64,000 nt of DNA, taken from the NCBI GenBank assembly GCA_021108325.1, contig JAIORB010000038.1, positions 17,217-81,216 of the forward strand. The letters are read 5' to 3'. Below are positions 24,801-57,607 of the stretch, one piece after another. The translations under genes were made by a program, and so were the position numbers. The stretch comes from Bacteroidales bacterium. GTDB taxonomy: Bacteria; Bacteroidota; Bacteroidia; Bacteroidales; UBA12077. The notes below the pieces were generated by a model. The model did no database searches and was not told the DNA's origin. It saw nothing but the letters and a program-made list of their open reading frames with translations. The stretch's first letter is position 1. The number at the start of each line of letters is the position of its first letter.

Positions 24801-25075
24801 CTCCAATAGCACGAATGGTATATGGAAAACTATTAGGAAATGATGAAGTAACTAATATTAAAGTTTATCCTAATCCTGCAAAAGAAGAATTAAATATAGA
24901 AATACCATTTGATAATGCAAAGGTTAGAATTATTAATTCAACCGGAGCAATTGTTAAAGAAGTAGTGTTAAATAACGAAAAAGTAATTAATATTTCTGAT
25001 TTAGCTAATGGTTTATATATTATTTCAGTAGAAGATGATAAAGGCCCTATTACAGAAACATTTATTAAACAATAA
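21881..25075 (+). CDS. T9SS-secreted multidomain papain-family (C1) cysteine peptidase
   Basis: Signal peptide and a DUF333-like N-domain (NPAAKYCEMLGY...). C1 catalytic residues are QGSCGSCYAF, NHAIALIGWG and NSWGSSWGDGGY. Also two GEVED-type domains (YGEVEDYTV x2), two FN3 repeats (WNASTDNVGV.GYDVY) and a Por tail (KVYPNPAKEELNIE...GLYIISV). Confidence 0.8.
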   Translation: MKKFTLLTFIFSITLIFTVFGQKGYINPAAKYCEMLGYRYEVTSVKGSGEVGIVHLPDGQMVNAWDFFKGKVAPEYSYAAKLGFDVETEVVKENGYTVERAVCVRMNKGVEERIPLLELMELNGEPLNAEVEKTIPTIQEIAKVDPNFTNVKSLPSEFDWRNYNGHSYIGDVRNQGSCGSCYAFGATACAEGTYNFATGSYDSNTSDFSEGWIAFCLSDISPYSSHFDGCNGADYDYYELQALVDIGHIDESYFPYSDASNQSCPSTTESAPKIQFEGWYRVPCADVDAIKTAIMTYGVVDAAVYVTTAFQNYTEGVFTDSYTTCNSSPCYNATTNHAIALIGWGVDATEGEYWILRNSWGSSWGDGGYMKLSVNASHVDCSVCYMVYTDDGSVAPTVTSNTVTGIGDNTATCGGNVTDDGGAAIIASGIVYSKTSGVNTSNGTVVETSPTVTSGSYSLTMNGLLSGTTYYVNSFATNAKGAGYGTERSFTTTGEAQIEYCSSQGANYSYEWIAGVVVGDFSNTSGAAGYTDFTGMTANLTAGETYNITLTPAFSGSTYNEYWKIWIDLNHDGDFDDADENVFDQGGMSKTIVTGSITIPASAAAVTTRMRVTMKYNAEPTACEASFSYGEVEDYTVQILGGDTEAPTAPSSLIASNITMTSVDLDWNASTDNVGVAGYDVYQNGSLITNTTNTYYNVSGLTSGTSYSYYVIAKDAVGNESDASNTVNITTDTDTQAPTAPANLASSSITATSVGLSWNASTDNVGVTGYDVYKDGAYLASTSGTSYNVSGLTKATTYTFYVKAKDAAGNVSAASDYLDVTTLDEVVVVEYCDLYATSARFEWIDVFGLNDLYNTSGANAGYGDYTSLTANVSAGTSYTASLSAGFKRRTYTEYWNVWIDFNIDGEFTSDEIVVQGTVADGNVYTATVDIPSTATIGQTRLRVAMSDAGYSAACGSFRYGEVEDYTVNITAKAAPIARMVYGKLLGNDEVTNIKVYPNPAKEELNIEIPFDNAKVRIINSTGAIVKEVVLNNEKVINISDLANGLYIISVEDDKGPITETFIKQ

Positions 25076-25625: not shown

Positions 25626-26018
25626 ATGGCTTTAAAAGAATCGGATATAAAGAAGTATTCTATACAAATTGCTGAAAAAAATGAGGTGTTTGTATGGATA
25701 GGTCCATGTTCTGTTAAAAAAATGGAATTTACAAAAATACCACTGGATGGTAGAAAGTATGAATGTGGAGGAGAAGTCTTTCTGGCAAATGGACTTGTTT
25801 TACAAGCTAGTTTCAGAATGCAGAAAACCAATGATGTTTTATTAATTGAAGACACTGTTTATACAAAAATTGATGGAATATGGTATAAACTCAATGAACC
25901 TGAATTCCTTGAAAAAACCGGTTTGGACAAAGAAGATGTTTTTCCTGTTGAATGGAAACCGGACATCCCATTAAATCACCCATTAAAAGGACCATACAAA
26001 ATGAACTGGAAAGGATAA
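25626..26018 (+). CDS. hypothetical protein
   Basis: 130-aa ORF preceded by aaggag and followed by a strong terminator. No motif recognised. Confidence 0.4.
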   Translation: MALKESDIKKYSIQIAEKNEVFVWIGPCSVKKMEFTKIPLDGRKYECGGEVFLANGLVLQASFRMQKTNDVLLIEDTVYTKIDGIWYKLNEPEFLEKTGLDKEDVFPVEWKPDIPLNHPLKGPYKMNWKG

Positions 26019-26047
26019 AAAAAGGAGAGCAATTTTGCTCTCCTTTT
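26017..26047. terminator. bidirectional intrinsic terminator (end of the sulfur operon)
   Basis: aaaaaaa-ggagagc-aatttt-gctctcc-tttt between convergent genes. Confidence 0.75.
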
Positions 26048-26069: not shown

Positions 26070-27119
26070 TTATACAACTTGTTTAATCTTATCGAAATAC
26101 ATTGCAAATGAACGATATAAAAAGTGTGTCCATTTACCAAATGGAACAATAATCAACGCCCATTGAACGAGTACTATTAAATGGAATAAGTACATCCAAA
26201 TATTATTTTCTATTAAATCAAGATCAATAAAAACTCGAACAATAAATGCAGTAAATCCCAATAAAAATAACCAGATTACGAAAAACCAGTCTGATGGTTG
26301 AGAAAACTTATTTACTTCTTTATTCTTTTGAATCCGGCCAGCAACAAAAATGAATGTAATAATAAATATTACAACGCTTTCAATGTATCCGAGAAGAATA
26401 ATAAAAAGATTTTCGGTTCCAAACCAGTCAAGAACAACGGTTGTAAATAGTAATGCTAGATATCCAAAAACAAGGATAAGATGCATAAACCATCGGGTTT
26501 GACTATCGTCGCAACCCAAAGTTCTTTTTTGTGTAAACATATGTATTAAGAGGTCTTGAAACTCTTTGAAATATGTTATAAATTTTACTTTAATACCAGG
26601 CTTAATAATCACAAAATACCACATCCGAAAAAGGTTAGGTAAAATAATAAATGTGAAAACGGAAGCAATCGATAACATTTCAAACAGATGACCGTGGTGC
26701 ATTATAGTTTCTACATTAAAATTCTGGTATACGCTATAGTATATAACGCCAATAGCAGTAATTATAAATGCAAAAAGACTAAATAACAGAGATTTTTGTA
26801 ACAAGCCTGATAAACCTGTCCAGTCGTATTTCGCTGTTAGCCATCGTCGTAACGACATCATAAGCTCGCCCGGATTAGCTTCACGAGGACATGTTGTAGC
26901 ACAATCGCCACAATAATAACATAACCAGGGATCTAAAGATGTAGTTATTTTTTCATCTAAACCTAACACACTTGCCCTAACCATTTTTCTGGGAAATGAG
27001 TTATGTTCATCAGTTAAACTACATACGGCTGTACAGTTACCACAATTATAACATGCATTAAAATCGCCATTACCGTATTTAAAGATTTCTTTTGCAAAAT
27101 CAGGATTTATTTTTGCCAT
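26070..27119 (-). CDS. QmoC-like membrane subunit (HdrC-type 2x[4Fe-4S] domain fused to a cytochrome-b/NarI-like multi-TM domain)
   Basis: N-terminal CYNCGNCTAVCS and CYYCGDCATTCP, followed by at least 5 hydrophobic helices with conserved-looking His (HHGHLFEM, FMHLILVF, LFHLIVLV, KWTHFLY). Confidence 0.7.
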   Translation of the reverse strand: MAKINPDFAKEIFKYGNGDFNACYNCGNCTAVCSLTDEHNSFPRKMVRASVLGLDEKITTSLDPWLCYYCGDCATTCPREANPGELMMSLRRWLTAKYDWTGLSGLLQKSLLFSLFAFIITAIGVIYYSVYQNFNVETIMHHGHLFEMLSIASVFTFIILPNLFRMWYFVIIKPGIKVKFITYFKEFQDLLIHMFTQKRTLGCDDSQTRWFMHLILVFGYLALLFTTVVLDWFGTENLFIILLGYIESVVIFIITFIFVAGRIQKNKEVNKFSQPSDWFFVIWLFLLGFTAFIVRVFIDLDLIENNIWMYLFHLIVLVQWALIIVPFGKWTHFLYRSFAMYFDKIKQVV

Positions 27120-27124
27120 ATCCT

Positions 27125-27403
27125 TTACTTTTTCAGTTTGTAAAAATAAAATTCGTCCATATCGTCTACTTCTCCGGCTTCAATATTTCCGTATTTCTGA
27201 AGAGTCATAAGATGATATGTTACAACATCCAGAGGAAGATCTATTTCTTGTGCTATTTGTGGAACAGTTTTTTCTTCGGTTTCCAGAGATTTTAAAATCT
27301 GCCTTTTGATTTTATTAAAGGCTTTCATATTTTCTTTTACCGAATCGGAAACTTTCCTTTTTGTCTTAATAATGTCTATTGTTTTTCCCATAATTTTATG
27401 CAC
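27125..27403 (-). CDS. small winged-helix (ArsR/MarR-like) protein embedded in the redox module
   Basis: 92 aa. KRQILKSLETEEKTVPQIAQEIDLPLDVVTYHLMTLQKYGNIE looks like an HTH plus wing. It is 2 nt and 5 nt from its neighbours. Confidence 0.45.
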   Translation of the reverse strand: MHKIMGKTIDIIKTKRKVSDSVKENMKAFNKIKRQILKSLETEEKTVPQIAQEIDLPLDVVTYHLMTLQKYGNIEAGEVDDMDEFYFYKLKK

Positions 27404-27405
27404 TA

Positions 27406-29343
27406 TTAATAAATTAAAGCTTCAATCATACTTTCCATTTCTATGTCTGTATATCCGATTAAATCAATTGCATTTTCAGGACATACAGGCAAACACATTC
27501 CACATCCTTTACATAAGGATTTAGATACTTCAGCCACTTCTTTGTCTTTGTATTTAATTTTAGAAATAGCATCGTAAGGACATGCCTCCGTACATTTATC
27601 ACACCATGTACATTTATCGTTATGTATAACGGCCATGGTAGGTTCAAGTTTTATTTCGCCCGAACTTACAAGAGAGTTAACTTTTGAAGCTGCTGATAGA
27701 GCAGATTTAACCGATTCTGTTATATTTAAAGGTGCCTGACATGCTCCTGAAATCAGAACTCCGTCAATTACAGTTTCAACAGGACGTAATTTAGGATGAA
27801 TTTCATTGAAAAATTTATCACGACCAATAGGAACTTTTAGAATGTTTACAATACCTTCATAATCTCTTGGTACCATACCGGTTACCAGGACAACTAAATC
27901 GGCATTAACTTCAAGCTCTTCATTGTCAGTTAAAATATCATTAATTTTAACGATTGTTTCATTTCCAGCTCTTTCAACCTGTGGCGGAGCTTCTTCAAAT
28001 GATTGTAAGAAAATATCTCCTGCTTCTGAAGCTTCATGATAAAGTTTTTCCTGTTTACCATAAGTTCTGATACCCCGGTTAAAATGGAAATTGTTAATTT
28101 CAGAATACTTCTCTTTAGCCAGAATTGCTGTATGAATTGCGGAAGTACAACAATATCTTGAACAATATTTATTAGGACCGTCAATTTGCCGGCTTCCTAC
28201 ACAATAAATATATGCTATATTCTTTATCGTTTTATTGTTATAAATTAATGCGTCTTCGTTCAATTCAATTAATCGTTTGAACTGTTGTAGTGTAATCACA
28301 TTGTCAATTTCACCAAATCCAAATTCACCTTTAGTAGGTTCGTAAGGATTAAAACCTGTGCTTAATTGTATTGCACCAACAGATATATTAACTTCTTCAG
28401 GTTGTTGGTTAAGATCGATATCAGCACAAATTTTTACACACTCACCACATTTGTTACATGCTTCACAATCTATAGCAGGAATTTCAGGGAATTCACTACA
28501 ATAGTTTTTATAGATAGCTTTGCGTTTAGTAATATTGAAATTGAATTCATCATCAACCTCAATTGGACAAACTGCAATAGCTTTTTCAAGATCTTTTATA
28601 TCATGCTTACAGTCAGGTTTTATATACCGTGGTTTTATTTTAAGTGTCAGGTTAAATTCTCCTACACTTCCTTTTTTACCAATAATTTCTGTTCCGGTAT
28701 ATAAGGTAATTTTTGGATGAGTATTAATCTGATGATATAACCTGGTAACAACTTCCTGTCCGGTTTCATTAGTAGTAAAAAGGACATTCCACTGCGAGGT
28801 TCTACCTCCAACAAAATGTTCACGTTCTATTAAATGAACAGTAGTTCCCATTTCTGCTAATTCAAGAGCGGCTCTCATTCCGGCAATACCTGCACCAACA
28901 ACCGCAACAGCATTAATTGAAGGAATTTTAATCGGAATCAATTCTTTCGAATGTTTCACTCTTTCAATTCCTCCTTTAACCAGATTAATAGCTTTTTCTG
29001 TGGCTAAAGGCGGATTATCAGAATGAGCCCATGAGCCTTGTTCACGAATATTTACCTGAACATAATTGTATGGGTTTAATCCTCCTCTTTGAGCAACATT
29101 TCGGAAAGTGTCTAAATGTAATTTTGGAGAACAGGATGCAACAACAATTGCATCAAGCTTTTGCTCTTTTATATCATTTTCAATTTCCTGTTGTGTAGAA
29201 TCTGCACAGGCAAACATGGTGGTTTTTGCAACATAAACACCATCAATTTTTTCTGCGGCTTCTTTAACTTTATCAACATCTACATAGTCTGAGATGTTAG
29301 ATCCACACATACATACGTAAACTCCTATTTTATTTTTCATCAT
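27406..29343 (-). CDS. HdrA-type FAD/Fe-S flavoprotein (QmoB-position, without fused MvhD domain)
   Basis: HdrA N-domain (IGVYVCMCGSNI...VASCSP), FAD fold VVGAGIAGMRAALELAE, inserted ferredoxin CEACNKCGECVKIC, and CSRYCCTSA. C-terminal 2x[4Fe-4S] sites are CTWCDKCTEACP and CKGCGMCLPVCP. Confidence 0.8.
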   Translation of the reverse strand: MMKNKIGVYVCMCGSNISDYVDVDKVKEAAEKIDGVYVAKTTMFACADSTQQEIENDIKEQKLDAIVVASCSPKLHLDTFRNVAQRGGLNPYNYVQVNIREQGSWAHSDNPPLATEKAINLVKGGIERVKHSKELIPIKIPSINAVAVVGAGIAGMRAALELAEMGTTVHLIEREHFVGGRTSQWNVLFTTNETGQEVVTRLYHQINTHPKITLYTGTEIIGKKGSVGEFNLTLKIKPRYIKPDCKHDIKDLEKAIAVCPIEVDDEFNFNITKRKAIYKNYCSEFPEIPAIDCEACNKCGECVKICADIDLNQQPEEVNISVGAIQLSTGFNPYEPTKGEFGFGEIDNVITLQQFKRLIELNEDALIYNNKTIKNIAYIYCVGSRQIDGPNKYCSRYCCTSAIHTAILAKEKYSEINNFHFNRGIRTYGKQEKLYHEASEAGDIFLQSFEEAPPQVERAGNETIVKINDILTDNEELEVNADLVVLVTGMVPRDYEGIVNILKVPIGRDKFFNEIHPKLRPVETVIDGVLISGACQAPLNITESVKSALSAASKVNSLVSSGEIKLEPTMAVIHNDKCTWCDKCTEACPYDAISKIKYKDKEVAEVSKSLCKGCGMCLPVCPENAIDLIGYTDIEMESMIEALIY

Positions 29344-30628
29344 AACCTCCTCTTAAATAACCTGATGTTTCTGCAGAAGCTGCACCTGCTGATAGGATAG
29401 AGTCCGGAATATCCATTGGACCGGATGCTGTGCCAGCTACGTATACACCACTCATATTAGTTTGAGCAGGATTTGCCAGTATGTCTTTTTGTTCAACAAA
29501 ATTATATTGATCAAGCTCAAGTTTATTATTAAACATTGATGAAACACCATCGTTAGCTAGTATCCCTACTGATAAAACAGCCATGTCATGATTTGCTTCT
29601 TTAACAACACCACTTTCAATATCTTCATAACGAAGTTTTAAATCTCCATTTTCAGTTTCTTCAATTTTCCCTATTTTCCCTTTTATGAAAGTAACACCCA
29701 TATCTTTAGACTGTTGATAGAATTCGTTGAAACCTTTACCAAAAGAACGTATATGAAGATAATATATGGTAACGTCAGCCATAGGTAAAGCTCCCATTAA
29801 AAGTTGAGCTTGTTTTATTGAGTACATGCAACATACTTGAGAACAGATAGGATTTCCTACTGTTTCGTCACGCGATCCTGCACATAATACATAAGCAATA
29901 TTATCAGGAACTTTTCCATCTTTTGGTCTTAGTACATTATTGTAAGGCCTTGTAGGTACAAGTTGTCGTTCCATTTGCATTGATGTTACCACATTCTTAA
30001 ATACTCCGAATCCGTATCGTGGTATTAAGGTTGGGTCAAAAAGCTTAAAACCTGTAGCGATTACTACTGATTTAACTTTAATCTGTATTTCTTCTTCCTC
30101 TTGTGTAAAATCTATACAATCTGCAGGGCATACTTTTTCGCATGCTCCGCATAAGCTGCAGTTTTCAATATCAATTGCAGCAACACGAGGGTTTGCAATG
30201 CTGAAAGGAACATAAACAGCTTTTCTGCCAACTAAATCATACTGATATTGATCCTGTACGGTAACAGGACATGCTTCTTCGCACAATTGACACCCTGTAC
30301 ATGCATCTTCAATTACATATCTTGGATGTTTTGTTAAAAGAGCTCTAAAATCATATTCCGATTTTTTATCAATATTACTTACTTCACTGTATGTATAAAT
30401 AGTTATATTGGGATGCCTTGCTGTTTCGGATACTTTCGGTGTGGTTATACAAGCTGAGCAGTCCAGTGTAGGAAAAACTTTACTAAGATGTATCATTTTT
30501 CCGCCAACGGATAAATCTTTCTCAACGATAAGAACTTTATATCCCTGGTCGGCTAAATTTAATGCTGCTTCCTCACCAGAAATTCCTCCTCCGATAACTA
30601 GTACATCATATTCTTCTGTTTTTGACAT
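29330..30628 (-). CDS. QmoA/HdrA-type FAD/Fe-S flavoprotein
   Basis: VIGGGISGEEAALNLA, LDCSACITTPK, CTGCQLCEEACP, CSLCGACEKVCP and CSQVCCMYS. Overlaps the next gene by 14 nt. Confidence 0.8.
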   Translation of the reverse strand: MSKTEEYDVLVIGGGISGEEAALNLADQGYKVLIVEKDLSVGGKMIHLSKVFPTLDCSACITTPKVSETARHPNITIYTYSEVSNIDKKSEYDFRALLTKHPRYVIEDACTGCQLCEEACPVTVQDQYQYDLVGRKAVYVPFSIANPRVAAIDIENCSLCGACEKVCPADCIDFTQEEEEIQIKVKSVVIATGFKLFDPTLIPRYGFGVFKNVVTSMQMERQLVPTRPYNNVLRPKDGKVPDNIAYVLCAGSRDETVGNPICSQVCCMYSIKQAQLLMGALPMADVTIYYLHIRSFGKGFNEFYQQSKDMGVTFIKGKIGKIEETENGDLKLRYEDIESGVVKEANHDMAVLSVGILANDGVSSMFNNKLELDQYNFVEQKDILANPAQTNMSGVYVAGTASGPMDIPDSILSAGAASAETSGYLRGGYDEK

Positions 30629-30644
30629 ATTGAGTTATTTTTAA

Positions 30645-31046
30645 TTAATTCCCTTTAGATTCTGATAAAAATTTGTGGAATGATTTCATGTGTTTAACAA
30701 AAGCTTCTGCACAAACTGAGCATATTGCAGCCATTTTTAATTTTGCAGGATCAATGTTTTTTTCTTTCATTAATTCATGAGTGTTTGCAACAATTTTTGA
30801 TGTTTTATCAGAACAAGTATCACTGAATGAACAATCTGTTCCATCGGCAGCGATAAATACTCCATCGAAACCTTTATCAAAAGCATGTAAAATCCATTTT
30901 GATTTTATTGCGCTTGAGCAAGGAACATTAACGGTATATACTGTTGCGGGATAATGTTTTTTCAGAAGCCCCGCCATATCAATAGCGGGGTCAGAAATTT
31001 TCTCAGTAGAAAAAACCAGAATTTTTGGATTATCTGTGTTTTCCAT
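30645..31046 (-). CDS. MvhD/FlpD-like (methyl-viologen-reducing hydrogenase delta-type) protein, divergent Cys pattern
   Basis: 133 aa with KILVFS...VNVPCSS...AFDKGFDGVFIAADGTDCSFSDTC...KLKMAAICSVCAEAF. The fold-level pattern is FlpD-like, but the N-terminal CxxC position reads STEK. Confidence 0.6.
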   Translation of the reverse strand: MENTDNPKILVFSTEKISDPAIDMAGLLKKHYPATVYTVNVPCSSAIKSKWILHAFDKGFDGVFIAADGTDCSFSDTCSDKTSKIVANTHELMKEKNIDPAKLKMAAICSVCAEAFVKHMKSFHKFLSESKGN

Positions 31047-31051
31047 TTTTC

Positions 31052-31303
31052 TTAGCCTTTCTTCATGTAGATTTTGAAATATCCTGAATCTTCTGCTGTT
31101 CCTAAATATTCGTGTCCTTTTTTAGCAGCCCATTTTGGAATATCTTTTCTTGTACCTTCATCAGCTGAAAGAACTTCCATAATCTGGCCTGAACTAATTT
31201 CAGCTATTGCTTTTTTTGCAGCTAATAGCGGGCCAGGACATGCTGTACCTCTTGCATCAACTGATTTGTCAACGTTTAATGCTTTTAATTCTTCTTCGTT
31301 CAT
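31052..31303 (-). CDS. tusA: TusA-family sulfur carrier
   Basis: 83 aa with VDARGTACPGPLLAAKKAI (CPxP motif). Confidence 0.8.
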   Translation of the reverse strand: MNEEELKALNVDKSVDARGTACPGPLLAAKKAIAEISSGQIMEVLSADEGTRKDIPKWAAKKGHEYLGTAEDSGYFKIYMKKG

Positions 31304-31362
31304 AGTTGTATTTTTTAATTTGTGAAATTATTAATGATAATTATGAAACAATATGATATTTA

Positions 31363-31791
31363 TTAAATAAATAAATGAATATCAGCTTCTTCTGCAGCAG
31401 TAATGTATTCTCCTATACCAACAATATCATCTGCTAAGTCGATAAAATCTTCTAGTTTTTCTCCGCCCCAAATTTTACCGGCTAACCCGCAGATATGAAT
31501 TTTTACATTTGTTAATTCTTTAGCTTCTTTAAAGAATTCATGCCATTCTTTCACATTTAATTTATCTAATGAATTTATAAACTCATCACGCAAATGAGAA
31601 TTTTCGGCAAGTTTTATCTCATCTTTATTTGTTGCAATTTCTTTTTTAAACGCCCTTGCAGCTTGTAAAAGTACATATATATCTACGTCCATATCGTCAG
31701 CAGCAGCCCCGCTAAGTATCACTCCTGCAGCTGTTAGTTTATCTAAACACCCTGAAAAAAGAGCTAAACACATTTTTTTATTATCTTCCAT
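31363..31791 (-). CDS. DsrE3-like (COG2210 / DsrE-DsrF-DsrH-like) sulfur-relay protein, paralogue 1
   Basis: 142 aa with LDKLTAAGVILSGAAADDMDVDIYV, conserved Cys in KIHICGLAGKIWG, and the C-terminal EADIHLFI typical of this family. Confidence 0.6.
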   Translation of the reverse strand: MEDNKKMCLALFSGCLDKLTAAGVILSGAAADDMDVDIYVLLQAARAFKKEIATNKDEIKLAENSHLRDEFINSLDKLNVKEWHEFFKEAKELTNVKIHICGLAGKIWGGEKLEDFIDLADDIVGIGEYITAAEEADIHLFI

Positions 31792-31832
31792 AGTTTTAAG
31801 TTTTTATTGTTAATTATTTAATAAGTATTATT

Positions 31833-32246
31833 TTAAATAAATAAATTAACATCTGCTTCCTGAACAGACTCAATGTATTCGCCAATGCCACAAATGTCAT
31901 CAACGAGATCGATAAAATCTTCCATTTTTTCACCACCGGCAATTTTACCTGCTAAACTACAGATATTAATTTTTACTTCGGTCAATTCTTTTGCCATTTC
32001 AAAAAATTCTATCCATGATGGTGTATTTAATTTTTCAAGAGAAGCTTTAAACTCCTCAGGTGTTTGAATATCTTCACTCATATTAGATATATCAGCAGCC
32101 TTGTTTTTTAAAAATGCATGACCAGCATTTACTAAAACAAATACATCTACTTCCATATCGTCGGCGGCAGCACCACTAAGTATTACACCTGCACTAATAA
32201 GTTTATCAATGCTTGATGTGCCTAAGCCCATTGTCATTTTTGCCAT
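31833..32246 (-). CDS. DsrE3-like (COG2210) sulfur-relay protein, paralogue 2
   Basis: 137 aa, collinear with paralogue 1 (IDKLISAGVILSGAAADDMEVDVFV, KINICSLAGKIAG, EADVNLFI). Confidence 0.6.
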   Translation of the reverse strand: MAKMTMGLGTSSIDKLISAGVILSGAAADDMEVDVFVLVNAGHAFLKNKAADISNMSEDIQTPEEFKASLEKLNTPSWIEFFEMAKELTEVKINICSLAGKIAGGEKMEDFIDLVDDICGIGEYIESVQEADVNLFI

Positions 32247-32271
32247 ATCTTATTTTTTTATAGATTAAACA

Positions 32272-32772
32272 TTAACCTCCACAACCTCCACCTGATGATT
32301 CTTTTTTTACAGGTGTAGGTGCTGCTTCTCCCATTCCTTGTTCAACGAACTCGGGATAAGTAGCTTCCCAATCGAACCAACTGAAATCAAGCATGTAGCA
32401 ATCGGAATATTTTAATAACTTTAATGACTGAACAGCTAATGCTCCGCTACCCACTTCATTACCAATTACTAAAGTTTTAATCCTCCTGTTTGAAAGTTTG
32501 CTCGAAAATTCAAGAAGCCCTCTTGGAATATGAATAGATCCTGAAATATGCCCTAGCATGAAATCATAATCTTCACGACAATCAATTATTTGTATTTCTG
32601 TATGATTATCAATTAAAGCTTTTAATTCTTCCATGCTCATGGTATTAACTTCTGCTTTAGCAGCAGTAACCATATCTTCGGCATTTTCATATACAGTATT
32701 ATCTTTTTTTACACAACTGAAAAGCAGCGTAAGAGATAATATAGCCGGAACAATAAATTTTATGAATCTCAT
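32272..32772 (-). CDS. rhodanese-fold lipoprotein lacking the catalytic Cys, with C-terminal GGCGG tail
   Basis: Track ORF trimmed to ATG 32772 (MRFIKF...LTLLFSC lipobox), which removes the overlap with the upstream gene. The active-site loop position reads LVIGNEVGSG. The C-terminus is ...PTPVKKESSGGGCGG*. Confidence 0.7.
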   Translation of the reverse strand: MRFIKFIVPAILSLTLLFSCVKKDNTVYENAEDMVTAAKAEVNTMSMEELKALIDNHTEIQIIDCREDYDFMLGHISGSIHIPRGLLEFSSKLSNRRIKTLVIGNEVGSGALAVQSLKLLKYSDCYMLDFSWFDWEATYPEFVEQGMGEAAPTPVKKESSGGGCGG

Positions 32773-32785
32773 AATTGAATTAGTT

Positions 32786-33589
32786 TTATTTCCATTCGTT
32801 ATAAGCACCATCATAAACTTTAACATTTGGATATTCTAAAATTGATGTTAATGCAAGAAATACAACACCAGCTCTAACACTTGTAGCACAATAAAGAATT
32901 ATTTCCTTGTTTTTAGTCATTCCTGCACTATTAAAAAGTTTTTCCAATTCAGCTTTTGATTTTAACTTTCCACCATCGGCAAGAACATTTTTAAACTCAA
33001 GATGCTTTGCTCCGTTAATATGTCCTTCGCCCCATTCTGTGTCGTCTCTAACATCAACAATAACTGCAGAGTTTAATTTTGATTTCACATAAGCTTTATT
33101 GCAAAAAATCTTAGAATTTACTTTAGGTGTAAAAGTAACAGCAGTAACTTTTGTAGCTGCATTTGTAACCGGACCTCTGGCGGTTCTCCATGCCTGCATA
33201 TGCCCATCAAGAACTTTAACATCGTTAAATCCTAAATATTTAAGAATCCAGTATAATCTTCCTGAACCTTTATTTGAACCTGTATCGTAAATAACAATTT
33301 TCTTAGCAGGGTCAATTCCCTTTTTTCCTAAAATTGTTGCCAGCTCAGCAGGAGATTTTAGAATTCCTTTTGGTTCTGTAGTACTTGCTAAAGCATCTAT
33401 GCTAACGTTCACAGCATTTCTGATGTGTACTTTTGCATAATCTTCAGCACTTCTTGTAGAAACAATAACTGTGCTTTTATTATTAACTAATTTTTTTGCT
33501 TCTGCTGCAGAGATTAAATCCTGAGCAATTGAAATATTTACAAAAATGGTTAATAATAAAAAACTAAATAATATGTTTTTAAATTTCAT
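32786..33589 (-). CDS. periplasmic two-domain rhodanese (thiosulfate sulfurtransferase-like)
   Basis: Signal peptide (VNISIA-QD). The N-domain is inactive (VIYDTGSNKGSGR) and the C-domain is active (ILYCATSVRAG). Confidence 0.8.
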   Translation of the reverse strand: MKFKNILFSFLLLTIFVNISIAQDLISAAEAKKLVNNKSTVIVSTRSAEDYAKVHIRNAVNVSIDALASTTEPKGILKSPAELATILGKKGIDPAKKIVIYDTGSNKGSGRLYWILKYLGFNDVKVLDGHMQAWRTARGPVTNAATKVTAVTFTPKVNSKIFCNKAYVKSKLNSAVIVDVRDDTEWGEGHINGAKHLEFKNVLADGGKLKSKAELEKLFNSAGMTKNKEIILYCATSVRAGVVFLALTSILEYPNVKVYDGAYNEWK

Positions 33590-33603
33590 AACTTTTCTTT
33601 TTA

Positions 33604-34641
33604 TTAAAATTTAACTTGAACTTGTAATACTACCTGATCATTAGGAATTTCAGCTCCATGTTCAGCCCTATATCTGTAATTTAACTGAATTCTTGTCCAA
33701 TCGTTTAAGAAATAGTTAATTCCATAAGTCGTAATGAATTCAGTATTATCATCAATAGATACGTTAGCATCATAACTTTCTAACTTAAATACAGGTTGTA
33801 AATTCCATTGAGTCATATACATTGCCTGAGCAAAGAAACCACTACGTGTTACACCACCAGTGTGGAATTCGATTGGTGTTCCGTCGCAACCACCACCAGT
33901 TGTATAGTCTCCGCTATCATCGGCCCATAAGTATTCACTCTGGAATAAGAAATTACTATATTTTATTTGAAGTTCACCTCCCAAACGAGTTTTTTTATTG
34001 TCCTCATTTGCTCCTGTTTTACCATAAGCAAAACTTCCACCAAATTGTACGAATTCTACAGGTGAAATAGTTACACGTCCTTTAATACTTTTTGCAATAT
34101 TTTCATCCTCGAAACCTCTTTCGTAATCGTTCATTATTGCAAGATAATAATGAAGCTTAGAATCGGCTGTTCCACCAAATAACATAGCTCCCATATCGCG
34201 TTGTGGGCCTGCAAGTTCATTAACAACCTTTGAACGATAAATTGTATGTAATGACTGGCATGCAGTGTTTTGTTCTAAACTTATCGGAGATTTAAATTGT
34301 CCGAAAGTTACTTTAGCCCAATCATATCTGGTATATGATACAAATGCATCTAGTATCCATGGTGAACCGGATTTGAATTTAGAGAAATCGATCATTACAA
34401 AATAACTTACATCATAAGGTATGCTTCCTAATGCAGCTATTCTGGCACGATTAAGTGTAAAGCTGTTAGCATCATGACCATCAGTTGTTTGCCAATATTC
34501 CCATTGTGGCTGAATATATCCTTTTATACTTACTCCCTCATCAGATGATGCCTCCATACAACCTTGTGCAGAAATTACATTTACAGATGTAAATATAATC
34601 AGCATTGAGAGAGTTAATATTGATATTGATTTTTTAATCAT
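33604..34641 (-). CDS. outer-membrane porin (porin O/P-like beta-barrel)
   Basis: Signal peptide, alternating amphipathic strands, and a C-terminal ...VLQVQVKF ending in Phe. Confidence 0.6.
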   Translation of the reverse strand: MIKKSISILTLSMLIIFTSVNVISAQGCMEASSDEGVSIKGYIQPQWEYWQTTDGHDANSFTLNRARIAALGSIPYDVSYFVMIDFSKFKSGSPWILDAFVSYTRYDWAKVTFGQFKSPISLEQNTACQSLHTIYRSKVVNELAGPQRDMGAMLFGGTADSKLHYYLAIMNDYERGFEDENIAKSIKGRVTISPVEFVQFGGSFAYGKTGANEDNKKTRLGGELQIKYSNFLFQSEYLWADDSGDYTTGGGCDGTPIEFHTGGVTRSGFFAQAMYMTQWNLQPVFKLESYDANVSIDDNTEFITTYGINYFLNDWTRIQLNYRYRAEHGAEIPNDQVVLQVQVKF

Positions 34642-34670
34642 TGTAATTGGTTTTAAATATTATTTATATT

Positions 34671-35648
34671 TTATTCTGTTGGTAAATCAGTAATTACTGT
34701 AGCATCCCACTTACTGGAAGTAAGATCATTATAGATCATTCCATTTGCACCGAATTTTAAGCTATGAGAATTATAACCTAAAACGTATAAATAAGCAGTA
34801 ATAACTGAAGAAGTCTGACCAGTCCAGCAATAAGTTACAACATCTTTAGATGGATCTAAATATATATATTCTTCGCCCGCTAGCGTAAGAGGATTAATTC
34901 TGTGTGCACCAGAAATATTACCATAAGTAGTAACATCAGTAGCAGCCCAGTAATTGTTAATGAAATATGATCCGGGAGCATCTAATACACCAGGACTGTC
35001 ACCTGTTATAGCTGTAACACCTCTTAAACTACCGCTTAATAATGAAGTAACTCTTGCTTCTAAAATAGCAGCACCATCTCCGGTTTCTGTAATATCAGGA
35101 TCTTTGTATTCTGAGGTATGCTCAATAATTGATCCTGGTGATGCAATCCAGTTAGGACTTGAAATAGTATTTGTATTTGGACTCCATGAATCTGTTGAAG
35201 TATGCCATCCGCTCATTCCCCATTTTAATACTTTTGCAGTAGGATAACCACTAAGCCTTAAGGCACAAACAGCATGCCCTGCAGTTTGCCCGGTGTAACA
35301 AACAACAATAATAGTTTTTCCGGCTGCGCTGGCAGCTTGTGTTACAACATTACCATACGAGCAGTTTACAGCACTAGGTATATGACTGGTTGCATAAGCA
35401 TCAGCTTTACGGATGTCTATAACATAATAATTTACTAAATCTGCATTTACAGTTGCAGCGGTAGTTATCCAACCATCTAATATATTATTTAAATCGAGGT
35501 CGTTGTTTTGTAAATAAGTAATTAAAGTTTGAAATTCAGCATCTGTTTCACGTTCCGGTATTAGATCATCAGTATCATCTTTACAAGATGTTAAAACAAA
35601 TGCAGGAATCATTAATAATAAAATAGAGAATCTTAAAAACTGTTTCAT
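34671..35648 (-). CDS. two-domain rhodanese lipoprotein
   Basis: Track ORF trimmed to ATG 35648 (MKQFLRF...FVLTSC lipobox). Two rhodanese-type loops: VVCYTGQTAGH and VTYCWTGQTSS. Confidence 0.7.
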   Translation of the reverse strand: MKQFLRFSILLLMIPAFVLTSCKDDTDDLIPERETDAEFQTLITYLQNNDLDLNNILDGWITTAATVNADLVNYYVIDIRKADAYATSHIPSAVNCSYGNVVTQAASAAGKTIIVVCYTGQTAGHAVCALRLSGYPTAKVLKWGMSGWHTSTDSWSPNTNTISSPNWIASPGSIIEHTSEYKDPDITETGDGAAILEARVTSLLSGSLRGVTAITGDSPGVLDAPGSYFINNYWAATDVTTYGNISGAHRINPLTLAGEEYIYLDPSKDVVTYCWTGQTSSVITAYLYVLGYNSHSLKFGANGMIYNDLTSSKWDATVITDLPTE

Positions 35649-35680
35649 AGTTATATTTATTTTGGTTAGTAAAAGTTTCA

Positions 35681-36166
35681 TTATCCACCACAACCACCTG
35701 ATTCAGGTTGTTTAGTAACTGTAGGATTTTCTCCGGCAAAGCCAAACCAGCCTCCTTGAAGGTTGGAAACATTTTCAAATCCCAGTTTTTTAAGTGCTTG
35801 TGTTGCAAGTGTGCCTCTGGCACCAGACTTACAATACACAATTATTTTGTCAGTTTTAAGAGGAGTGTACATGAATTGTTCTTCCCAATAATATTCATCA
35901 AGAATAAAGAATTCCAATTCACCACGTGGGATAGAGAATGATCCTGGGATATTACCCGCTTCGTATTCGGCAGGTTGTCTAATATCTAATAAAAGGAATT
36001 CTTCTCCGTTATCTATCATTGATTTTAATGTATCAACGCTTATTTCATTTATTTCAGATTTAACAACACTTGCTAATTCTTTTCCGTCTTCATAAATTGC
36101 GGTACAAGCAGAAAGCAAGAAGATAAGCAGTGCTAAAATCGATATATTGAATTTTATATTTTTCAT
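35681..36166 (-). CDS. single-domain rhodanese lipoprotein with intact active site and C-terminal SoxY-type GGCGG tail
   Basis: Lipobox LLSAC, active loop IIVYCKSGARG, and C-terminus ...NPTVTKQPESGGCGG* (DNA: caacctgaatcaggtggttgtggtggataa on the minus strand). Confidence 0.8.
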   Translation of the reverse strand: MKNIKFNISILALLIFLLSACTAIYEDGKELASVVKSEINEISVDTLKSMIDNGEEFLLLDIRQPAEYEAGNIPGSFSIPRGELEFFILDEYYWEEQFMYTPLKTDKIIVYCKSGARGTLATQALKKLGFENVSNLQGGWFGFAGENPTVTKQPESGGCGG

Positions 36167-36194
36167 ATCTTAAGTTTCAATAAGTAATTACAGC

Positions 36195-37409
36195 TTAAAA
36201 AGCACTGAATTTTCCTGTGCGTTCGTTCCATTTAACAAATACATACCAAACAAGTATGATTAACAGAACAATTAAGACCGCTCCTGCATATCCAAAGTAG
36301 TCAGGAAGATAATTCTTAAATTTCATGTTATGAGGAAGCTTATTAACAATAGCAGGAACTATATAAAGTTTTGAAATAGGAGATATTAATAAAAATCCTA
36401 AAGCAGCCATCCATAATTTCACTTGTCCTTCGCCAACTCTCCATAAGGTACCTACGGCACATCCTCCGGCAACGGTCATTCCTAATCCAAATATAAATCC
36501 ACCAATAAGACCACGTAACCAGAATTGACTGAAAACCCAGGTCATTTCTCTTGCGCGAATTGAAATTTCGCTTGCACCTATTCCAAAGAATTTAATAGCA
36601 GTAAATCCAATAAGAGTAATTAGCAATCCTGCCATAACCCCTACAGAACCGTCGCTTTCACCTGTCATGAAAGGATCTCTGAAAGCTTTAACAATGCAAA
36701 AACGAGATCTTTGACAAATAAGACCCATTAATAATCCGGATATGATAAACCATGCTAATACTCCATTTGTACCTGCAACTTTATATGCAAGAATAAATGT
36801 TCCGATTGATACAATCCAGCCTAGCCAAATTTGCCAATTTCCTTTGCCTTCTGGGGCTGCAAGAAAAGTAAAGCTTTTTCCGGAACTCATTCCAGGCCAT
36901 TTTTCCATTTCCCAAAGAAGATATTTAAGTGCAAGAATAGTACCCGCAAAAAGACCTATTGTAAAAACAATTGCACCACCTGATAAGGCAGGAACACCAC
37001 TAAAGAATGAACCAATAGTACACCCAAGTCCAAGGGTAGCACCAATTGCCATAAGTGCACCGCCAATAAAACCTTTTAGCAATTCTCCTTTTGGAGGAAT
37101 TCGTAATGCAAATTCTTTTGAGAAAAGAGCTCCTGCAAAAGATCCTAAAATAAGTACCAGACATAATACACCATAAAGACTTGTACTTGTAGGTGCTGCG
37201 TTTTCAAAAGCAGAAATACCGAAAAGTTTAAAAATGTTTTCTCCCCAGTTGTTAATACCTCCGCTGGCACCCCATGGGCTTTTTACTGTAAACAATAAAA
37301 TGTTTAATAAACCCAGAGTTACACCACCAACCCATACAGGCCAATGTTTTGCGAAAAATGTATTAAATAATTCCCGGAGTATTCCTGGCTCTTTTTGTTG
37401 ATCAGCCAT
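36195..37409 (-). CDS. yeeE: YeeE/YedE-family thiosulfate/sulfur-compound transporter (TsuA-like)
   Basis: 404 aa, polytopic, with duplicated halves carrying GLGCTIGSFFSG and AGGCAVGTLW motifs. Confidence 0.85.
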   Translation of the reverse strand: MADQQKEPGILRELFNTFFAKHWPVWVGGVTLGLLNILLFTVKSPWGASGGINNWGENIFKLFGISAFENAAPTSTSLYGVLCLVLILGSFAGALFSKEFALRIPPKGELLKGFIGGALMAIGATLGLGCTIGSFFSGVPALSGGAIVFTIGLFAGTILALKYLLWEMEKWPGMSSGKSFTFLAAPEGKGNWQIWLGWIVSIGTFILAYKVAGTNGVLAWFIISGLLMGLICQRSRFCIVKAFRDPFMTGESDGSVGVMAGLLITLIGFTAIKFFGIGASEISIRAREMTWVFSQFWLRGLIGGFIFGLGMTVAGGCAVGTLWRVGEGQVKLWMAALGFLLISPISKLYIVPAIVNKLPHNMKFKNYLPDYFGYAGAVLIVLLIILVWYVFVKWNERTGKFSAF

Positions 37410-37418
37410 TTTTACCTC

Positions 37419-37649
37419 CTATTTTTTTTGAATTAGAAATCTAAAAACACCACTTTCAACTTCACCTTCTTCAACTATTGTGTTGCCAGTTTTTTCGCAC
37501 CATTTTGGCAAATCTGATTTTGTTCCAGGATCGGTTCCAAGCATTTCTAAAACTTCACCTGAGTTTAATCCTTTAATTGCTTTAGCCAGTTTCATCATTG
37601 GCATTGGACATGAAAGCCCTTTACAATCTAATGTTTCTTTAATTTCCAT
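37419..37649 (-). CDS. TusA-family sulfur carrier (YeeD/TsuB-like)
   Basis: 76 aa with LDCKGLSCPMPMMKLAKAI, 9 nt upstream of yeeE. Confidence 0.8.
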   Translation of the reverse strand: MEIKETLDCKGLSCPMPMMKLAKAIKGLNSGEVLEMLGTDPGTKSDLPKWCEKTGNTIVEEGEVESGVFRFLIQKK

Positions 37650-37768
37650 AATCGTATAATTTTTTGTTGATTTTCAATGCAGTAAAGATTGTTAATTAAA
37701 TAACACACAAAAAGAAAAGCAGATTGATTTACCACCAGTATAAATTATGAGATTGCATAGTCAGAAAG

Positions 37769-37839: not shown

Positions 37840-38535
37840 ATGGAAAGATTCTCAGCGTTAAATAGCTGCACTGTAAGTAATTCTAAATGTATTTGTTTCG
37901 ATGTGTTAACGGAAGAAGAACAGGATTTGATAAGTAAAAACCAGATTGAAGTTCGTTATAAAAAAGGTGAAGTAATTTGTAAACACGGAACATTTGCCCC
38001 TCATATTATATTTTTGAAAGAAGGATTAGCCAAGGTTTATCTGGAAGGATTAAATGATTCTTTAATTTTAAAGATAATCACATCAGGTAATTTGATTGGG
38101 CTTACTACGATCATGGAGGACAATAATGTGTTTCATTATTCATCATCAGCATATGTTGATTCAACAGCAAACCTTATTGATATAAATATATTTAGAAAAA
38201 TTATTAAACAAAATGCTGAGTTTGCAAGTTCTATAATAAATATATTATGTGAAAACTCTTTACAAACTTTCGGAAGATTTTTTTGCCTGACTCACAAGCA
38301 ATTATACGGCAGGATGGCTGATATTATTTTATGTTTATCAGAAAGAATCTTTAAAGAAAGAAATTTTGAAATGAATCTTTCGAGAAAAGAACTTGCTGAA
38401 TTAACCGGAATGTCGACAGAAAGTGTTATTCGAATGCTTAAGAAATTTAAAGACGACGGTATAATTGAAATGCATGGAAAGACTCTTAATATTTCAAATT
38501 ATGATTTGTTAAGAAAAATTAGTGAATACGGATAA
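37840..38535 (+). CDS. Crp/Fnr family transcriptional regulator (N-terminal C-X6-C-X-C)
   Basis: cNMP-binding-like beta-roll plus a C-terminal HTH (LSRKELAELTGMSTESVIRMLKKF). N-terminal Cys10/Cys17/Cys19. Confidence 0.8.
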   Translation: MERFSALNSCTVSNSKCICFDVLTEEEQDLISKNQIEVRYKKGEVICKHGTFAPHIIFLKEGLAKVYLEGLNDSLILKIITSGNLIGLTTIMEDNNVFHYSSSAYVDSTANLIDINIFRKIIKQNAEFASSIINILCENSLQTFGRFFCLTHKQLYGRMADIILCLSERIFKERNFEMNLSRKELAELTGMSTESVIRMLKKFKDDGIIEMHGKTLNISNYDLLRKISEYG

Positions 38536-43272: not shown

Positions 43273-43299
43273 TATTAAAATATATAAAGGTTACCCTTT

Positions 43300-43422: not shown

Positions 43423-43435
43423 TTAATAAATTAAG

Positions 43436-50176: not shown

Positions 50177-50182
50177 AATTCA

Positions 50183-51965: not shown

Positions 51966-52015
51966 ATTGATTTTAGCTTTAGTTTAAATGAGTGTTGGAA
52001 AGTGTGTTTGTGTAC

Positions 52016-57594: not shown

Positions 57595-57607
57595 AATATT
57601 ATCTCTA

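Follow-up and report, generated by a model that had tools for sequence, protein, structure and literature searches.

Gene content and redox core of the operon

A stretch of 64,000 nucleotides from a Bacteroidales bacterium (assembly GCA_021108325.1, contig JAIORB010000038.1), hereafter the window, carries an operon that encodes sulfur carriers, rhodaneses and a flavin/iron-sulfur complex of the Qmo-like kind. The operon comprised 15 open reading frames (ORFs) at 26070-37649, all co-directional on the minus strand with gaps from -14 to 59 nt when first-ATG artefacts are set aside. Both the ORFs and the range of gaps agreed with a preliminary description made from the sequence of this DNA. The operon was closed by a bidirectional intrinsic terminator at 26020-26047, placed at 26017-26047 in that description, and the same hairpin closes a convergent 130-aa ORF. 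A hairpin scan found no comparable minus-strand terminator inside the operon, and a sigma-70 promoter scan was uninformative (75 matches vs 71 expected). The convergent ORF (25626-26018, plus strand) had no Pfam match and was kept at the same position in nine related loci (e.g. L004-L006, L008-L010, L014 and L023). The proteins of the operon were assigned at superfamily level by profile hidden Markov model searches, and every family that had been named in the preliminary description was confirmed by Pfam, NCBIfam or PDB matches (Table 1).

Table 1. Features of the operon and its upstream region, in transcription order of the operon, with positions in the window
Feature	Position	Strand	Basis of assignment
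TusA1, 76-aa TusA/YeeD-like carrier, CPMP	37419-37649	-	PF01206, 88.9 bits
YeeE/YedE-family inner-membrane sulfur (or selenium) transporter, 404 aa	36195-37409	-	PF04143, 185 bits
RhdG1, single-domain rhodanese lipoprotein, ...SGGCGG tail	35681-36166	-	PF00581, 76.5 bits
Rhd2a, two-domain rhodanese lipoprotein	34671-35693 (likely start ~35648)	-	two PF00581 stretches
Outer-membrane beta-barrel porin, OprO/OprP anion-selective family, signal peptide	33604-34641	-	PF07396 Porin_O_P, 49.7 bits (cut-off 20.9)
Rhd2b, periplasmic SseA/TST-type two-domain rhodanese, type I signal peptide	32786-33589	-	PF00581, 133.9 bits, two stretches
RhdG2, rhodanese-fold lipoprotein, ...SGGGCGG tail	32272-32826 (likely start ~32772)	-	PF00581, 49.2 bits
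DsrEa, DsrE3-like carrier, two-Cys type	31833-32246	-	PF13686 DrsE_2, 39 bits (cut-off 25)
DsrEb, DsrE3-like carrier, one-Cys type	31363-31791	-	PF13686, 35 bits (cut-off 25)
TusA2, 83 aa, CPGP	31052-31303	-	PF01206, 80.9 bits
MvhD/FlpD-like small iron-sulfur protein, 133 aa	30645-31046	-	PF02662, 94.9 bits
QmoA-like short HdrA, 432 aa, flavin adenine dinucleotide (FAD) domain with inserted 2x[4Fe-4S] ferredoxin domain	29330-30628	-	HdrA2 model 140-563, 470 bits
QmoB-like full-length HdrA, 645 aa	27406-29343	-	HdrA2 model positions 1-640, 568 bits
Winged helix-turn-helix (wHTH) protein, 92 aa, Cys-free	27125-27403	-	weak ArsR/HTH_20 matches
QmoC-like membrane subunit	26070-27119	-	qmoC model NF038018 positions 4-360 of 360, 162 bits (cut-off 300)
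Bidirectional intrinsic terminator	26020-26047		12-bp stem, five G-C pairs, T-runs on both strands
Candidate operator, palindrome TGTTA-N6-TAACA	37690-37705		some 41 nt before the first start codon
Crp1, divergent Crp/Fnr-family regulator	37840-38535	+	cNMP_binding and HTH_Crp_2
Crp2, second Crp/Fnr-family regulator	38720-39412	-	cNMP_binding and HTH_Crp_2; N-terminal C-x2-C-x5-C
CoADR/NADH-oxidase-family flavoprotein, single active-site Cys44 (LVPCGIPY)	39610-40965	-	Pyr_redox_2, 206.6 bits

The downstream genes of the operon encode two DsrE3-like carriers, a TusA protein and the subunits of the redox complex. DsrEa aligned with PDB entry 2qs7 (E=3.7e-12), its Cys96 falling on the conserved Cys of that structure. 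Cys96 was kept in 11/11 homologues and Cys119 in 10/11, and this two-Cys type was found in long operons. DsrEb belongs to the one-Cys type that is typical of the core (Cys101 kept in 54/54), and the window is slightly unusual in that both types are kept. TusA2 has a single Cys22, present in 65/65 homologues, and its gene was always located directly upstream of that for MvhD. The MvhD protein aligned with the C-terminal MvhD part of the HdrA2 model (644-769) and its five Cys were kept in 65/65.

Two HdrA-derived flavoproteins follow. In the QmoA-like protein, 14 of the 15 Cys were kept in at least 66 of 67 homologues, including CxxC 57/60 and C249/C262/C266/C267. The QmoB-like protein comprised an N-terminal cluster domain, a FAD domain and both an inserted and a C-terminal ferredoxin domain, with no fused MvhD. 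Its residues 3-643 matched the HdrA structures 5odc and 9sfi at an E-value of about 1e-127, and a match to sHdrA (6tjr) was obtained at E=2e-21. The cluster Cys were kept, and the score of 568 bits was under the HdrA equivalog cut-offs (1100).

The wHTH gene lies between those for the QmoB-like and QmoC-like proteins with gaps of 2 and 5 nt. The AlphaFold2 (AF2) monomer model of this protein had a predicted local distance difference test score (pLDDT) of 82, and Foldseek returned ArsR/SmtB, MarR and Zalpha folds at E-values of about 1e-3. The position of the gene is odd for a regulator and a structural subunit is conceivable. A DsrD-like effector and a persulfide-sensing ArsR regulator were considered for this protein and rejected, as the fold search gave only generic winged helices and the protein has no Cys.

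The QmoC-like protein combined an N-terminal HdrC-like 2x[4Fe-4S] domain, which matched HdrC in the PDB over residues 3-98, with a six-helix membrane domain. The C-terminal domain is probably dihaem and quinone-interacting, and binding of haem is predicted from conserved His residues: His213 and His332 were invariant even in outgroups, and His144, His193 and His313 were invariant within the subfamily. The eight cluster Cys and Cys203 were kept in 81/81 homologues. Cys203 was ruled out as a lineage-specific catalytic residue, being invariant also in the hydrogenase- and NuoEF-linked outgroups described below.

Envelope module, regulatory region and surrounding window

The seven upstream genes form an envelope module. 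The TusA1 gene is placed 9 nt upstream of the transporter gene and its product is taken as the partner of the transporter. The score of TusA1 with the NCBIfam TusA model was 59.8 bits, under the cut-off of 78, and Cys14 of its CPMP motif was kept in 4/5 homologues. The transporter scored 97.6 bits (cut-off 400) and 90.4 bits (cut-off 645) with the TsuA models, and its Cys130, Cys232, Cys238 and Cys317 were kept in 7/7.

The gene for RhdG1 comes directly after that of the channel. In RhdG1, the lipobox Cys21 and the active-site Cys112 were kept in 11/11 homologues and the tail Cys159 in 10/11. In a collection of 5.8 billion proteins, 74 of the 90 members of this family end in GGCG[GD] and most others in GGCG[E/S]. 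An AF2 monomer model built on a 41-sequence alignment had a pLDDT of 86.5 with the rhodanese domain above 90, and residues 145-161 were modelled as unstructured with the pLDDT dropping from 75 to 42. Foldseek matches of the model were single-domain sulfurtransferases and rhodanese domains of persulfide reductases.

Rhd2a had been described as a two-domain rhodanese lipoprotein, which stands with the refinement that an active-site Cys is present in both domains. Its lipobox Cys37 and the active loops CYTGQTA (Cys132) and CWTGQTS (Cys289) were all kept in 10/10 homologues. In Bacteroidetes, surface lipoproteins carry K-(D/E)2 or Q-A-(D/E)2 immediately after the lipidated Cys (PMC5080379). The lipid Cys of Rhd2a is followed by K-D-D-T-D-D, which agrees with the K-(D/E)2 signal, and its homologues have K-D-D, K-E-E or K-R-D-N-D-D at this position; display of Rhd2a on the cell surface is probable. 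The porin gene was always located between those of Rhd2a and Rhd2b in the long loci. The only NCBIfam match of the porin was a weak one to ExtI (44.8 bits, cut-off 150). Rhd2b has an inactive N-terminal domain; in its C-terminal domain the loop CATSVRA contains Cys234, kept in 12/12. Its scores were 113.8 bits with the 3-mercaptopyruvate sulfurtransferase model (cut-off 250) and 68.2 bits with ExtH (cut-off 200).

RhdG2 had been called a Cys-less rhodanese. The active-site Cys is indeed missing, but the protein still has Cys38 in the lipobox, Cys182 in the tail and two further Cys that are not conserved. Cys38 and Cys182 were kept in 13/13 homologues, and 14/14 homologues end in GGCG[GD] preceded by variable linkers rich in P, A, E and K. 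Distant RhdG2 homologues (L027, L034 and L066) have an active-site Cys in loops of the VYCDNGERS type, where the lineage of the window has VIGNEVGSG. It seems from these loops that RhdG2 evolved from an enzyme to a pure carrier in this lineage, in which it can work only via its tail because the active-site Cys has been lost. For Rhd2a and RhdG2 the listed ORF starts are probably too far upstream and the likely signal-peptide starts are those given in Table 1.

The tail GGCG[GD] was present in all 24 locus homologues of RhdG1 and RhdG2. A GGCGG C-terminus is well established as the site at which SoxY, the swinging arm of the Sox system, binds sulfur (PMC6067878). The tails had already been seen in the preliminary description, in which no connection to the SoxY carrier arm was drawn. 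No rhodanese with a GGCGG tail was found in the literature searched. Overall, the homologue alignments showed an unbroken series of conserved Cys from the lipoproteins through to TusA.

A 190-nt intergenic region separates the operon from the divergent Crp1 gene. A Crp1 homologue was divergent to the operon in 42 of the 64 complete loci of the survey given below. Among Crp1 homologues, Cys10 was kept in 33/33 and Cys137 in 30/33 and most have an N-terminal C-x2-C, a pattern compatible with redox, oxygen or sulfane sensing. The intergenic regions between the Crp gene and the operon contained an exact TGTGA-N6-TCACA in 33/43 cases and TGTTA-N6-TAACA in 8/43, the window included, and the Crp/Fnr regulator is predicted to bind this palindrome. 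The second regulator, Crp2, may be part of the same regulatory unit as the operon; its homologues kept Cys10 and Cys13 in 14/16 and Cys110 in 14/16.

A flavoprotein of the CoA-disulfide reductase (CoADR)/NSR family, which had been overlooked in the preliminary description, is encoded 2 kb upstream of the operon, beyond the two Crp/Fnr genes, as a transcription unit of its own with a terminator-like hairpin at 39553-39520. The scores of 233 and 224 bits with CoA-disulfide reductase models were both under the cut-offs. The CoADR/NSR family includes NAD(P)H sulfur, persulfide and CoA-persulfide reductases, and the protein is a candidate NAD(P)H-dependent (per)sulfide reductase that may represent either the missing terminal enzyme or a parallel route. 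In L043, L056, L063 and L075 a homologue was encoded no more than 10 kb from the core, and the gene is loosely associated with the operon. The 162-aa ORF that immediately precedes this gene (41020-41508, minus strand) had no Pfam or NCBIfam match.

The scan of the window for catalytic partners covered ORFs of at least 110 aa except 21881-25075 and 59834-60964. No Apr, Sat, Dsr, Sox, Psr/Phs, HdrB or lipoate-binding protein was found among the scanned ORFs, and the only Biotin_lipoyl match was a carboxylase subunit at 55657-57651. The window scan also gave no selD, selenoprotein signals or ExtJKL cytochromes, and no cytochrome c genes close to the operon. The remaining scanned ORFs were housekeeping, efflux, phosphate transport, carboxylase and regulatory proteins. 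These included an ordinary RND (resistance-nodulation-division) efflux operon at 42091-47945 on the plus strand (adaptor, AcrB-like pump and outer-membrane factor) and, at 47950-53106 on the minus strand, an Alginate_exp-type porin followed by an equally ordinary Pst-like phosphate ABC (ATP-binding cassette) transporter set, both unrelated to the operon. From reading of the translation, the ORF at 21881-25075 (plus strand) encodes a secreted protein of 1064 aa with a papain-like catalytic-Cys motif (QGSCGSCYAF), fibronectin-like repeats and an apparent C-terminal sorting domain of the type IX secretion system.

Distribution, synteny and relation to known systems

One genome per species was scanned with an alignment of the QmoC-like protein, and the 15 proteins of the window were mapped on the resulting loci by phmmer. 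A QmoC-like relative was encoded in 526 genomes. The best 80 of those loci were all from Bacteroidota, mainly Bacteroidales in the wide sense, with Labilibaculum, Ancylomarina, Draconibacterium, Mangrovibacterium, Mariniphaga, Tenuifilaceae, Prolixibacteraceae and Lentimicrobiaceae among the carriers. The order TusA-MvhD-QmoA-like-QmoB-like-QmoC-like was present in 64 of the 65 loci with enough upstream sequence. One to three copies of a DsrE-like gene preceded TusA in at least 57 loci; in Labilibaculum euxinus DsrE is present but too divergent for the phmmer threshold used. The wHTH gene was detected in 57 of the 64 complete loci. That the core is conserved as a unit speaks for a joint action of DsrE and TusA with the redox complex. 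Record titles and labels of metagenome-assembled genomes placed hosts in sulfidic, anoxic settings such as the Black Sea, the Zodletone spring and a sulfidic cave.

The complete seven-gene envelope block was found in only nine of the surveyed loci. It was also present in L084 and L086, two loci located by way of distant RhdG1 homologues; a third such locus, L085, ends after Rhd2a. Partial versions, either Rhd2b-RhdG2 or RhdG2 alone, were located ahead of the core in a few other genomes. The order TusA1-YeeE-RhdG1-Rhd2a-porin-Rhd2b-RhdG2 was fixed even at an RhdG1 identity of 47-51%, and the arrangement is far beyond chance because the same order recurs in independent genomes at this identity. 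The single 15-gene unit of the preliminary description was resolved into a core of seven to eight genes that is Bacteroidales-wide and a seven-gene envelope module of a sub-lineage.

Flanks of ±10 kb around about 85 related loci gave no recognisable apr, sat, dsr, sox, psr or lipoate-binding protein gene, and HdrB and MvhAG hydrogenase were absent from the window scan and from the related Bacteroidales loci. The lack of catalytic partners noted in the preliminary description was therefore borne out in the scanned ORFs of the window and in these flanks. Clustering of all non-core ORFs of 83 loci gave no hidden catalytic sulfur partner. The recurrent 'families' were antisense shadow ORFs, and the real recurrent flank families were DUF134, a metallo-beta-lactamase-fold protein, PF02635 DsrE (seven loci) and a ferritin-like protein. 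Extra 'QmoB' matches downstream of the core in L063 were rejected as Hdr proteins, since they proved to be P-loop NTPases with ferredoxin domains, a radical SAM enzyme and a protein with a CGGC domain; similar matches in L058 are put aside by analogy with L063. A recurrent set near several cores (L063 6004-12231, L041, L076 and others) consisted of DUF134, NifX-like, Mrp/MinD-type ferredoxin-domain NTPase, CGGC-domain and radical SAM proteins and may be a set for iron-sulfur or cofactor maturation. In addition, the core does not appear always to accompany aprAB or dsrAB: it is present in the Marinifilaceae isolates Labilibaculum and Ancylomarina, a family reported as incapable of sulfate reduction in a genomic survey (10.1101/2022.07.25.501493).

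An exact look-up of the QmoC-like protein of the window gave no record, and the source of the window is closely related to the Bacteroidales metagenome-assembled genome GCA_030611105.1 (98% identity). The Bacteroidales QmoC-like subfamily formed one cluster among 1.8 billion representatives, with the next relatives 36-41% identical. The ten nearest representative clusters scored 141-224 bits on the qmoC model and none reached 300. In outgroup L087 (JGI 3300032020), the QmoC-like gene lies between a giant HdrA-like flavoprotein and MvhD with NiFe-hydrogenase subunits. Outgroup L088 (Aminicenantes CP070757.1) has hydrogenase, NuoE/F-like, HdrA-like and FlpD genes beside it, and L089 (Fidelibacterota CP070638.1) has NuoE/F-like genes. 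These clusters appear to encode as yet uncharacterised hydrogenase or NADH complexes that are linked to quinone and possibly bifurcate electrons. Since the outgroup QmoC-like genes adjoin hydrogenase or NuoEF-like modules, the HdrA-like, MvhD and QmoC-like proteins appear to be a general membrane-linked flavin/iron-sulfur scaffold with interchangeable redox partners. The partner position is taken by a hydrogenase/NADH module in the outgroups, by adenosine 5'-phosphosulfate (APS) reductase in canonical Qmo and by DsrE and TusA in Bacteroidales.

The complex shares with QmoABC of sulfate reducers and Chlorobi the two HdrA-derived flavoproteins, an HdrC::haem-b membrane subunit and an MvhD-type element. 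In canonical Qmo (Desulfovibrio QmoB), the MvhD-like element is the C-terminal domain of QmoB, whereas in the operon MvhD is a separate gene before that of the QmoA-like protein. The operon also differs in having no aprBA or sat neighbour, an extra wHTH gene between B and C, DsrE and TusA directly upstream and a QmoC-like subunit under the equivalog cut-off. The resemblance to Qmo stated in the preliminary description therefore holds; identity with canonical QmoC does not, given 162 bits vs 300 and nearest relatives linked to hydrogenase or NuoEF and not to Apr. Neukirchen et al. 2023 (PMC10504309) noted orphan 'type II' Qmo-like sets in organisms with or without Dsr/Apr, assigned them no function and called for experiments. 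The HdrA-like subunits of the operon are nearer to true HdrA, as was described for type II (PMC10504309).

Other systems share single elements with the operon. The sHdr-LbpA system (PMC11094781, PMC4175335) likewise has DsrE3-like and TusA proteins beside HdrA- and HdrC-type proteins, and its sHdrA is matched by the QmoB-like protein. However, the scanned operon and flanks lacked HdrB1/B2 CCG subunits, a lipoate-binding protein and a lipoate ligase, and have a membrane haem-b anchor and MvhD instead. Full-length HdrA, MvhD and an HdrC-like dicluster domain are common to the operon, the Mvh-Hdr bifurcating complexes and the L087-L089 clusters, but the operon has no hydrogenase, NuoEF or HdrB and sulfur carriers adjoin instead. 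As in SoxYZ (PMC6067878), an exported protein carries a flexible arm with a C-terminal GGCGG and a Cys presumed to bind sulfur; in the operon this arm is on a lipidated rhodanese fold and not on a SoxY fold, and the window scan gave no SoxZ or other Sox genes. TsuA/TsuB (YeeE/YeeD) resembles the operon in that a PF04143 channel has conserved Cys in the membrane and a neighbouring TusA-like partner with CPxP, although the transporter of the operon is under the TsuA cut-offs. Sulfur disproportionators have an uncharacterised YTD (YedE-TusA-DsrE-CHP) cluster, for which Desulfobacterota, Nitrospirota and Acidobacteriota are the only reported sources (PMC12998232); it likewise has a YeeE/YedE channel with TusA-like and DsrE-family proteins in one operon. 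All 15 ORFs studied here have family assignments, and on that basis CHP1-3 are probably absent. Compared with both TsuA/TsuB and YTD, the operon adds the Qmo-like complex and the envelope relay. Geobacter ExtH/ExtI also pairs an outer-membrane porin with exported rhodanese-family proteins, but the ExtI and ExtH scores of the operon are far below the cut-offs and the multihaem cytochromes of ExtHIJKL are not found nearby. In Sud/Psr systems, exported rhodaneses feed a sulfur-reducing respiratory enzyme. In contrast, the window scan gave no molybdopterin Psr/Phs, and the sulfur of the operon appears to be imported and handled in the cytoplasm.

Proposed sulfur route and its alternatives

The favoured reading, with a probability of about 0.45, is that sulfane sulfur is delivered from the outside in to TusA and DsrE and then reduced to sulfide by the Qmo-like complex, so that the region would be a two-module system for zero-valent (sulfane) sulfur under anoxia. 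Rhd2a at the surface would take sulfane sulfur from polysulfide or elemental sulfur, and the anion-type porin would admit polysulfide, or the sulfur of loaded carriers, to the periplasm. Rhd2b, RhdG1 and RhdG2 would relay the sulfur as Cys-persulfides with the GGCGG tails as SoxY-like swinging arms, and it would arrive at the YeeE/YedE-type inner-membrane channel and its cytoplasmic partner TusA1. The DsrE3-like proteins and TusA2 would then offer protein-bound persulfide to a membrane-anchored flavin/iron-sulfur complex made of MvhD, a heterodimer of the QmoA-like and QmoB-like HdrA proteins and the QmoC-like haem-b/Fe-S subunit that talks to the menaquinone pool. This complex would most likely reduce the persulfide to sulfide, possibly by electron confurcation at the HdrA flavin, where menaquinol would be combined with ferredoxin or another donor of low potential. 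Sulfur would thereby serve fermentative bacteria as an electron sink or acceptor, and the divergent Crp/Fnr regulator would turn the operon on via the conserved palindrome. The substrate, each transfer step, the direction of the electrons, the confurcation and the site of S-S cleavage are all inferred here, as were the 'complete path' and the coupling to menaquinone in the preliminary description.

Several observations point to this route. The carrier Cys are invariant (TusA2 Cys22, DsrEb Cys101 and DsrEa Cys96), and the 645-aa QmoB-like protein is a full HdrA, the bifurcating/confurcating type of flavoprotein. The core conserved as a unit, with sulfur carriers at its exchangeable partner position, the fixed order of the envelope genes, their conserved lipoboxes, active-site loops and tails, the conserved regulation and the sulfidic, anoxic settings of the hosts also count in its favour. 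An outside-in flow is favoured because the probably surface-exposed Rhd2a, the porin and the importer-type channel read as acquisition, and an analogous outside-in chain from rhodanese to YeeE to TusA was proposed for Desulfurivibrio dismutans (PMC12142623). The chemistry is limited to the S0/S2- couple because no sulfite-forming or sulfite-consuming enzyme was found in the window or flanks. By textbook potentials menaquinol alone is too weak to reduce sulfur, and ferredoxin together with menaquinol at a bifurcating-type flavin is suggested for this reason.

Other observations weigh against the favoured reading. No CCG domain (PF02754, HdrB/DsrK) or other recognised S-S-cleaving site was found in the 15 proteins, and the catalytic step is without an identified home among them; in understood systems MvhD, HdrA-like proteins and QmoC are electron carriers only. 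The direction of electron flow is not readable from sequence. The best NCBIfam match of the transporter, over its full length, was the selenium-associated YedE/FdhT (137.7 bits, cut-off 350). The core is mostly found without the uptake module, and its primary role may be in intracellular sulfane sulfur and not in external respiration. The literature searched gave no physiological report of sulfur reduction by core-bearing isolates and no expression data. Finally, the partner survey covered the window and ±10 kb of the loci, which leaves room for Psr, Sqr or other partners elsewhere in the genomes. A more general claim is doubtful at this stage, namely that many anaerobic Bacteroidales use zero-valent sulfur in a molybdopterin-independent way that had gone unrecognised, that protein-bound persulfide on TusA/DsrE is the direct redox partner of an HdrA-type, menaquinone-linked con- or bifurcating complex with no catalytic subunit of the HdrB/DsrK type, and that one lineage feeds this complex from a 'sulfur utilisation locus' in which a surface rhodanese lipoprotein, an anion porin and GGCGG-armed rhodanese lipoproteins lead to the YeeE-type channel.

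The same parts could serve sulfur housekeeping, with the core lowering intracellular sulfane sulfur or supplying biosynthetic sulfide, the envelope module scavenging sulfur for assimilation and the quinone being a convenient electron source only, with no conservation of energy. This would suit the many genomes that have the core without the uptake module and the roles of the TusA, DsrE and rhodanese families in biosynthetic sulfur trafficking, and CoADR-family enzymes, whose rhodanese domains match RhdG1, are near the core in the window and four other loci. However, a four-subunit haem/FAD/multi-cluster complex with seven exported proteins would be heavy for assimilation where sulfide is abundant and full-length HdrA-type flavoproteins are typical of energy metabolism, which makes this explanation unlikely. 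The electrons could also run in the oxidative direction. Sulfide or thiol-bound sulfur would then be oxidised to persulfide or polysulfide at the HdrA flavin, with electrons bifurcated to menaquinone through QmoC and to ferredoxin; TusA and DsrE would carry the sulfane sulfur, and in the long version it would be exported via YeeE, the rhodaneses and the porin to extracellular sulfur. Such a route would yield sulfide detoxification and low-potential reductant. In the outgroups the position beside MvhD, HdrA and the QmoC-like protein is that of electron donors (Mvh-type hydrogenase, NuoEF-like), and by analogy the carriers could be donors as well. The potential of the S0/HS- couple falls between those of menaquinone and ferredoxin, and the hosts inhabit sulfidic habitats. 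A survey has also speculated that Hdr genes in Labilibaculum and Ancylomarina may alleviate sulfide toxicity (PMC11129491). Against this, a surface two-rhodanese lipoprotein with a porin reads more naturally as acquisition, like Sus-type systems, and both the habitat and the family of the regulator point to anoxic conditions, in which a sink for menaquinol is scarce. Proteins of the YeeE/TsuA type are known as importers and SQR-like sulfide-binding flavoprotein chemistry is not evident, and the oxidative direction is judged quite improbable.

Handling of selenium or tellurium, in which selenite or selenide carriers would be taken up and reduced via the YedE/YedF-like and ExtH/ExtI-like parts, is suggested by the names of the best-matching models: YedE/FdhT, a selenium metabolism membrane protein, for the transporter over its full length, ExtI as the only NCBIfam match of the porin, ExtH for Rhd2b and, weakly, YedF for the TusA proteins. 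All of these scores are far under the cut-offs (138 vs 350, 45 vs 150, 68 vs 200 and 36 vs 79-110), the selenium-related genes and ExtJKL cytochromes sought in the window scan were not there, and DsrE3-like proteins, TusA and SoxY-type tails are hallmarks of sulfur relay, so that this function is very unlikely. The least likely explanation, and a highly improbable one, is an ordinary QmoABC serving an APS reductase or Dsr encoded elsewhere in the genome. The subunit types are indeed those of Qmo and the survey covers loci and flanks, not whole genomes. The low qmoC scores of the window protein and of the ten nearest clusters, the loci without recognised apr, sat or dsr within 10 kb, the Marinifilaceae isolates and the type II Qmo-like sets known in organisms without Dsr and Apr (PMC10504309) all speak against it.

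The preliminary description was thus upheld in its families and in the absence of partners among the scanned ORFs, and revised as to a single indivisible 15-gene unit. No description of this gene cluster was found in the literature searched; the orphan type II Qmo-like sets are already in print (PMC10504309). The tight DsrE-TusA-MvhD-HdrA-HdrA-wHTH-QmoC unit across Bacteroidales, the conserved operator of the core and the envelope module with its surface rhodanese, porin and SoxY-tailed rhodanese lipoproteins appear to be undescribed. The cluster combines known kinds of parts and is not categorically new.

If delivery of sulfane sulfur to TusA/DsrE and its reduction by the Qmo-like complex are correct, fermentative Bacteroidales that live in sediments, seeps and sulfidic waters would, as a large group with the QmoC-like subunit in at least 526 species-level genomes, take part in sulfur cycling with an enzyme system that is invisible to marker-gene surveys using psr, dsr, apr, sox and sqr. 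The HdrA/Qmo-type scaffold would be able to partner with a sulfur-carrier protein, persulfide chemistry would be possible without a CCG-domain subunit, and the carrier-arm idea of SoxY would have arisen anew on a rhodanese lipoprotein. The orphan type II Qmo-like complexes would also gain a testable function, and hosts of the core, namely Labilibaculum, Ancylomarina and probably Draconibacterium, are cultured and genetically approachable.

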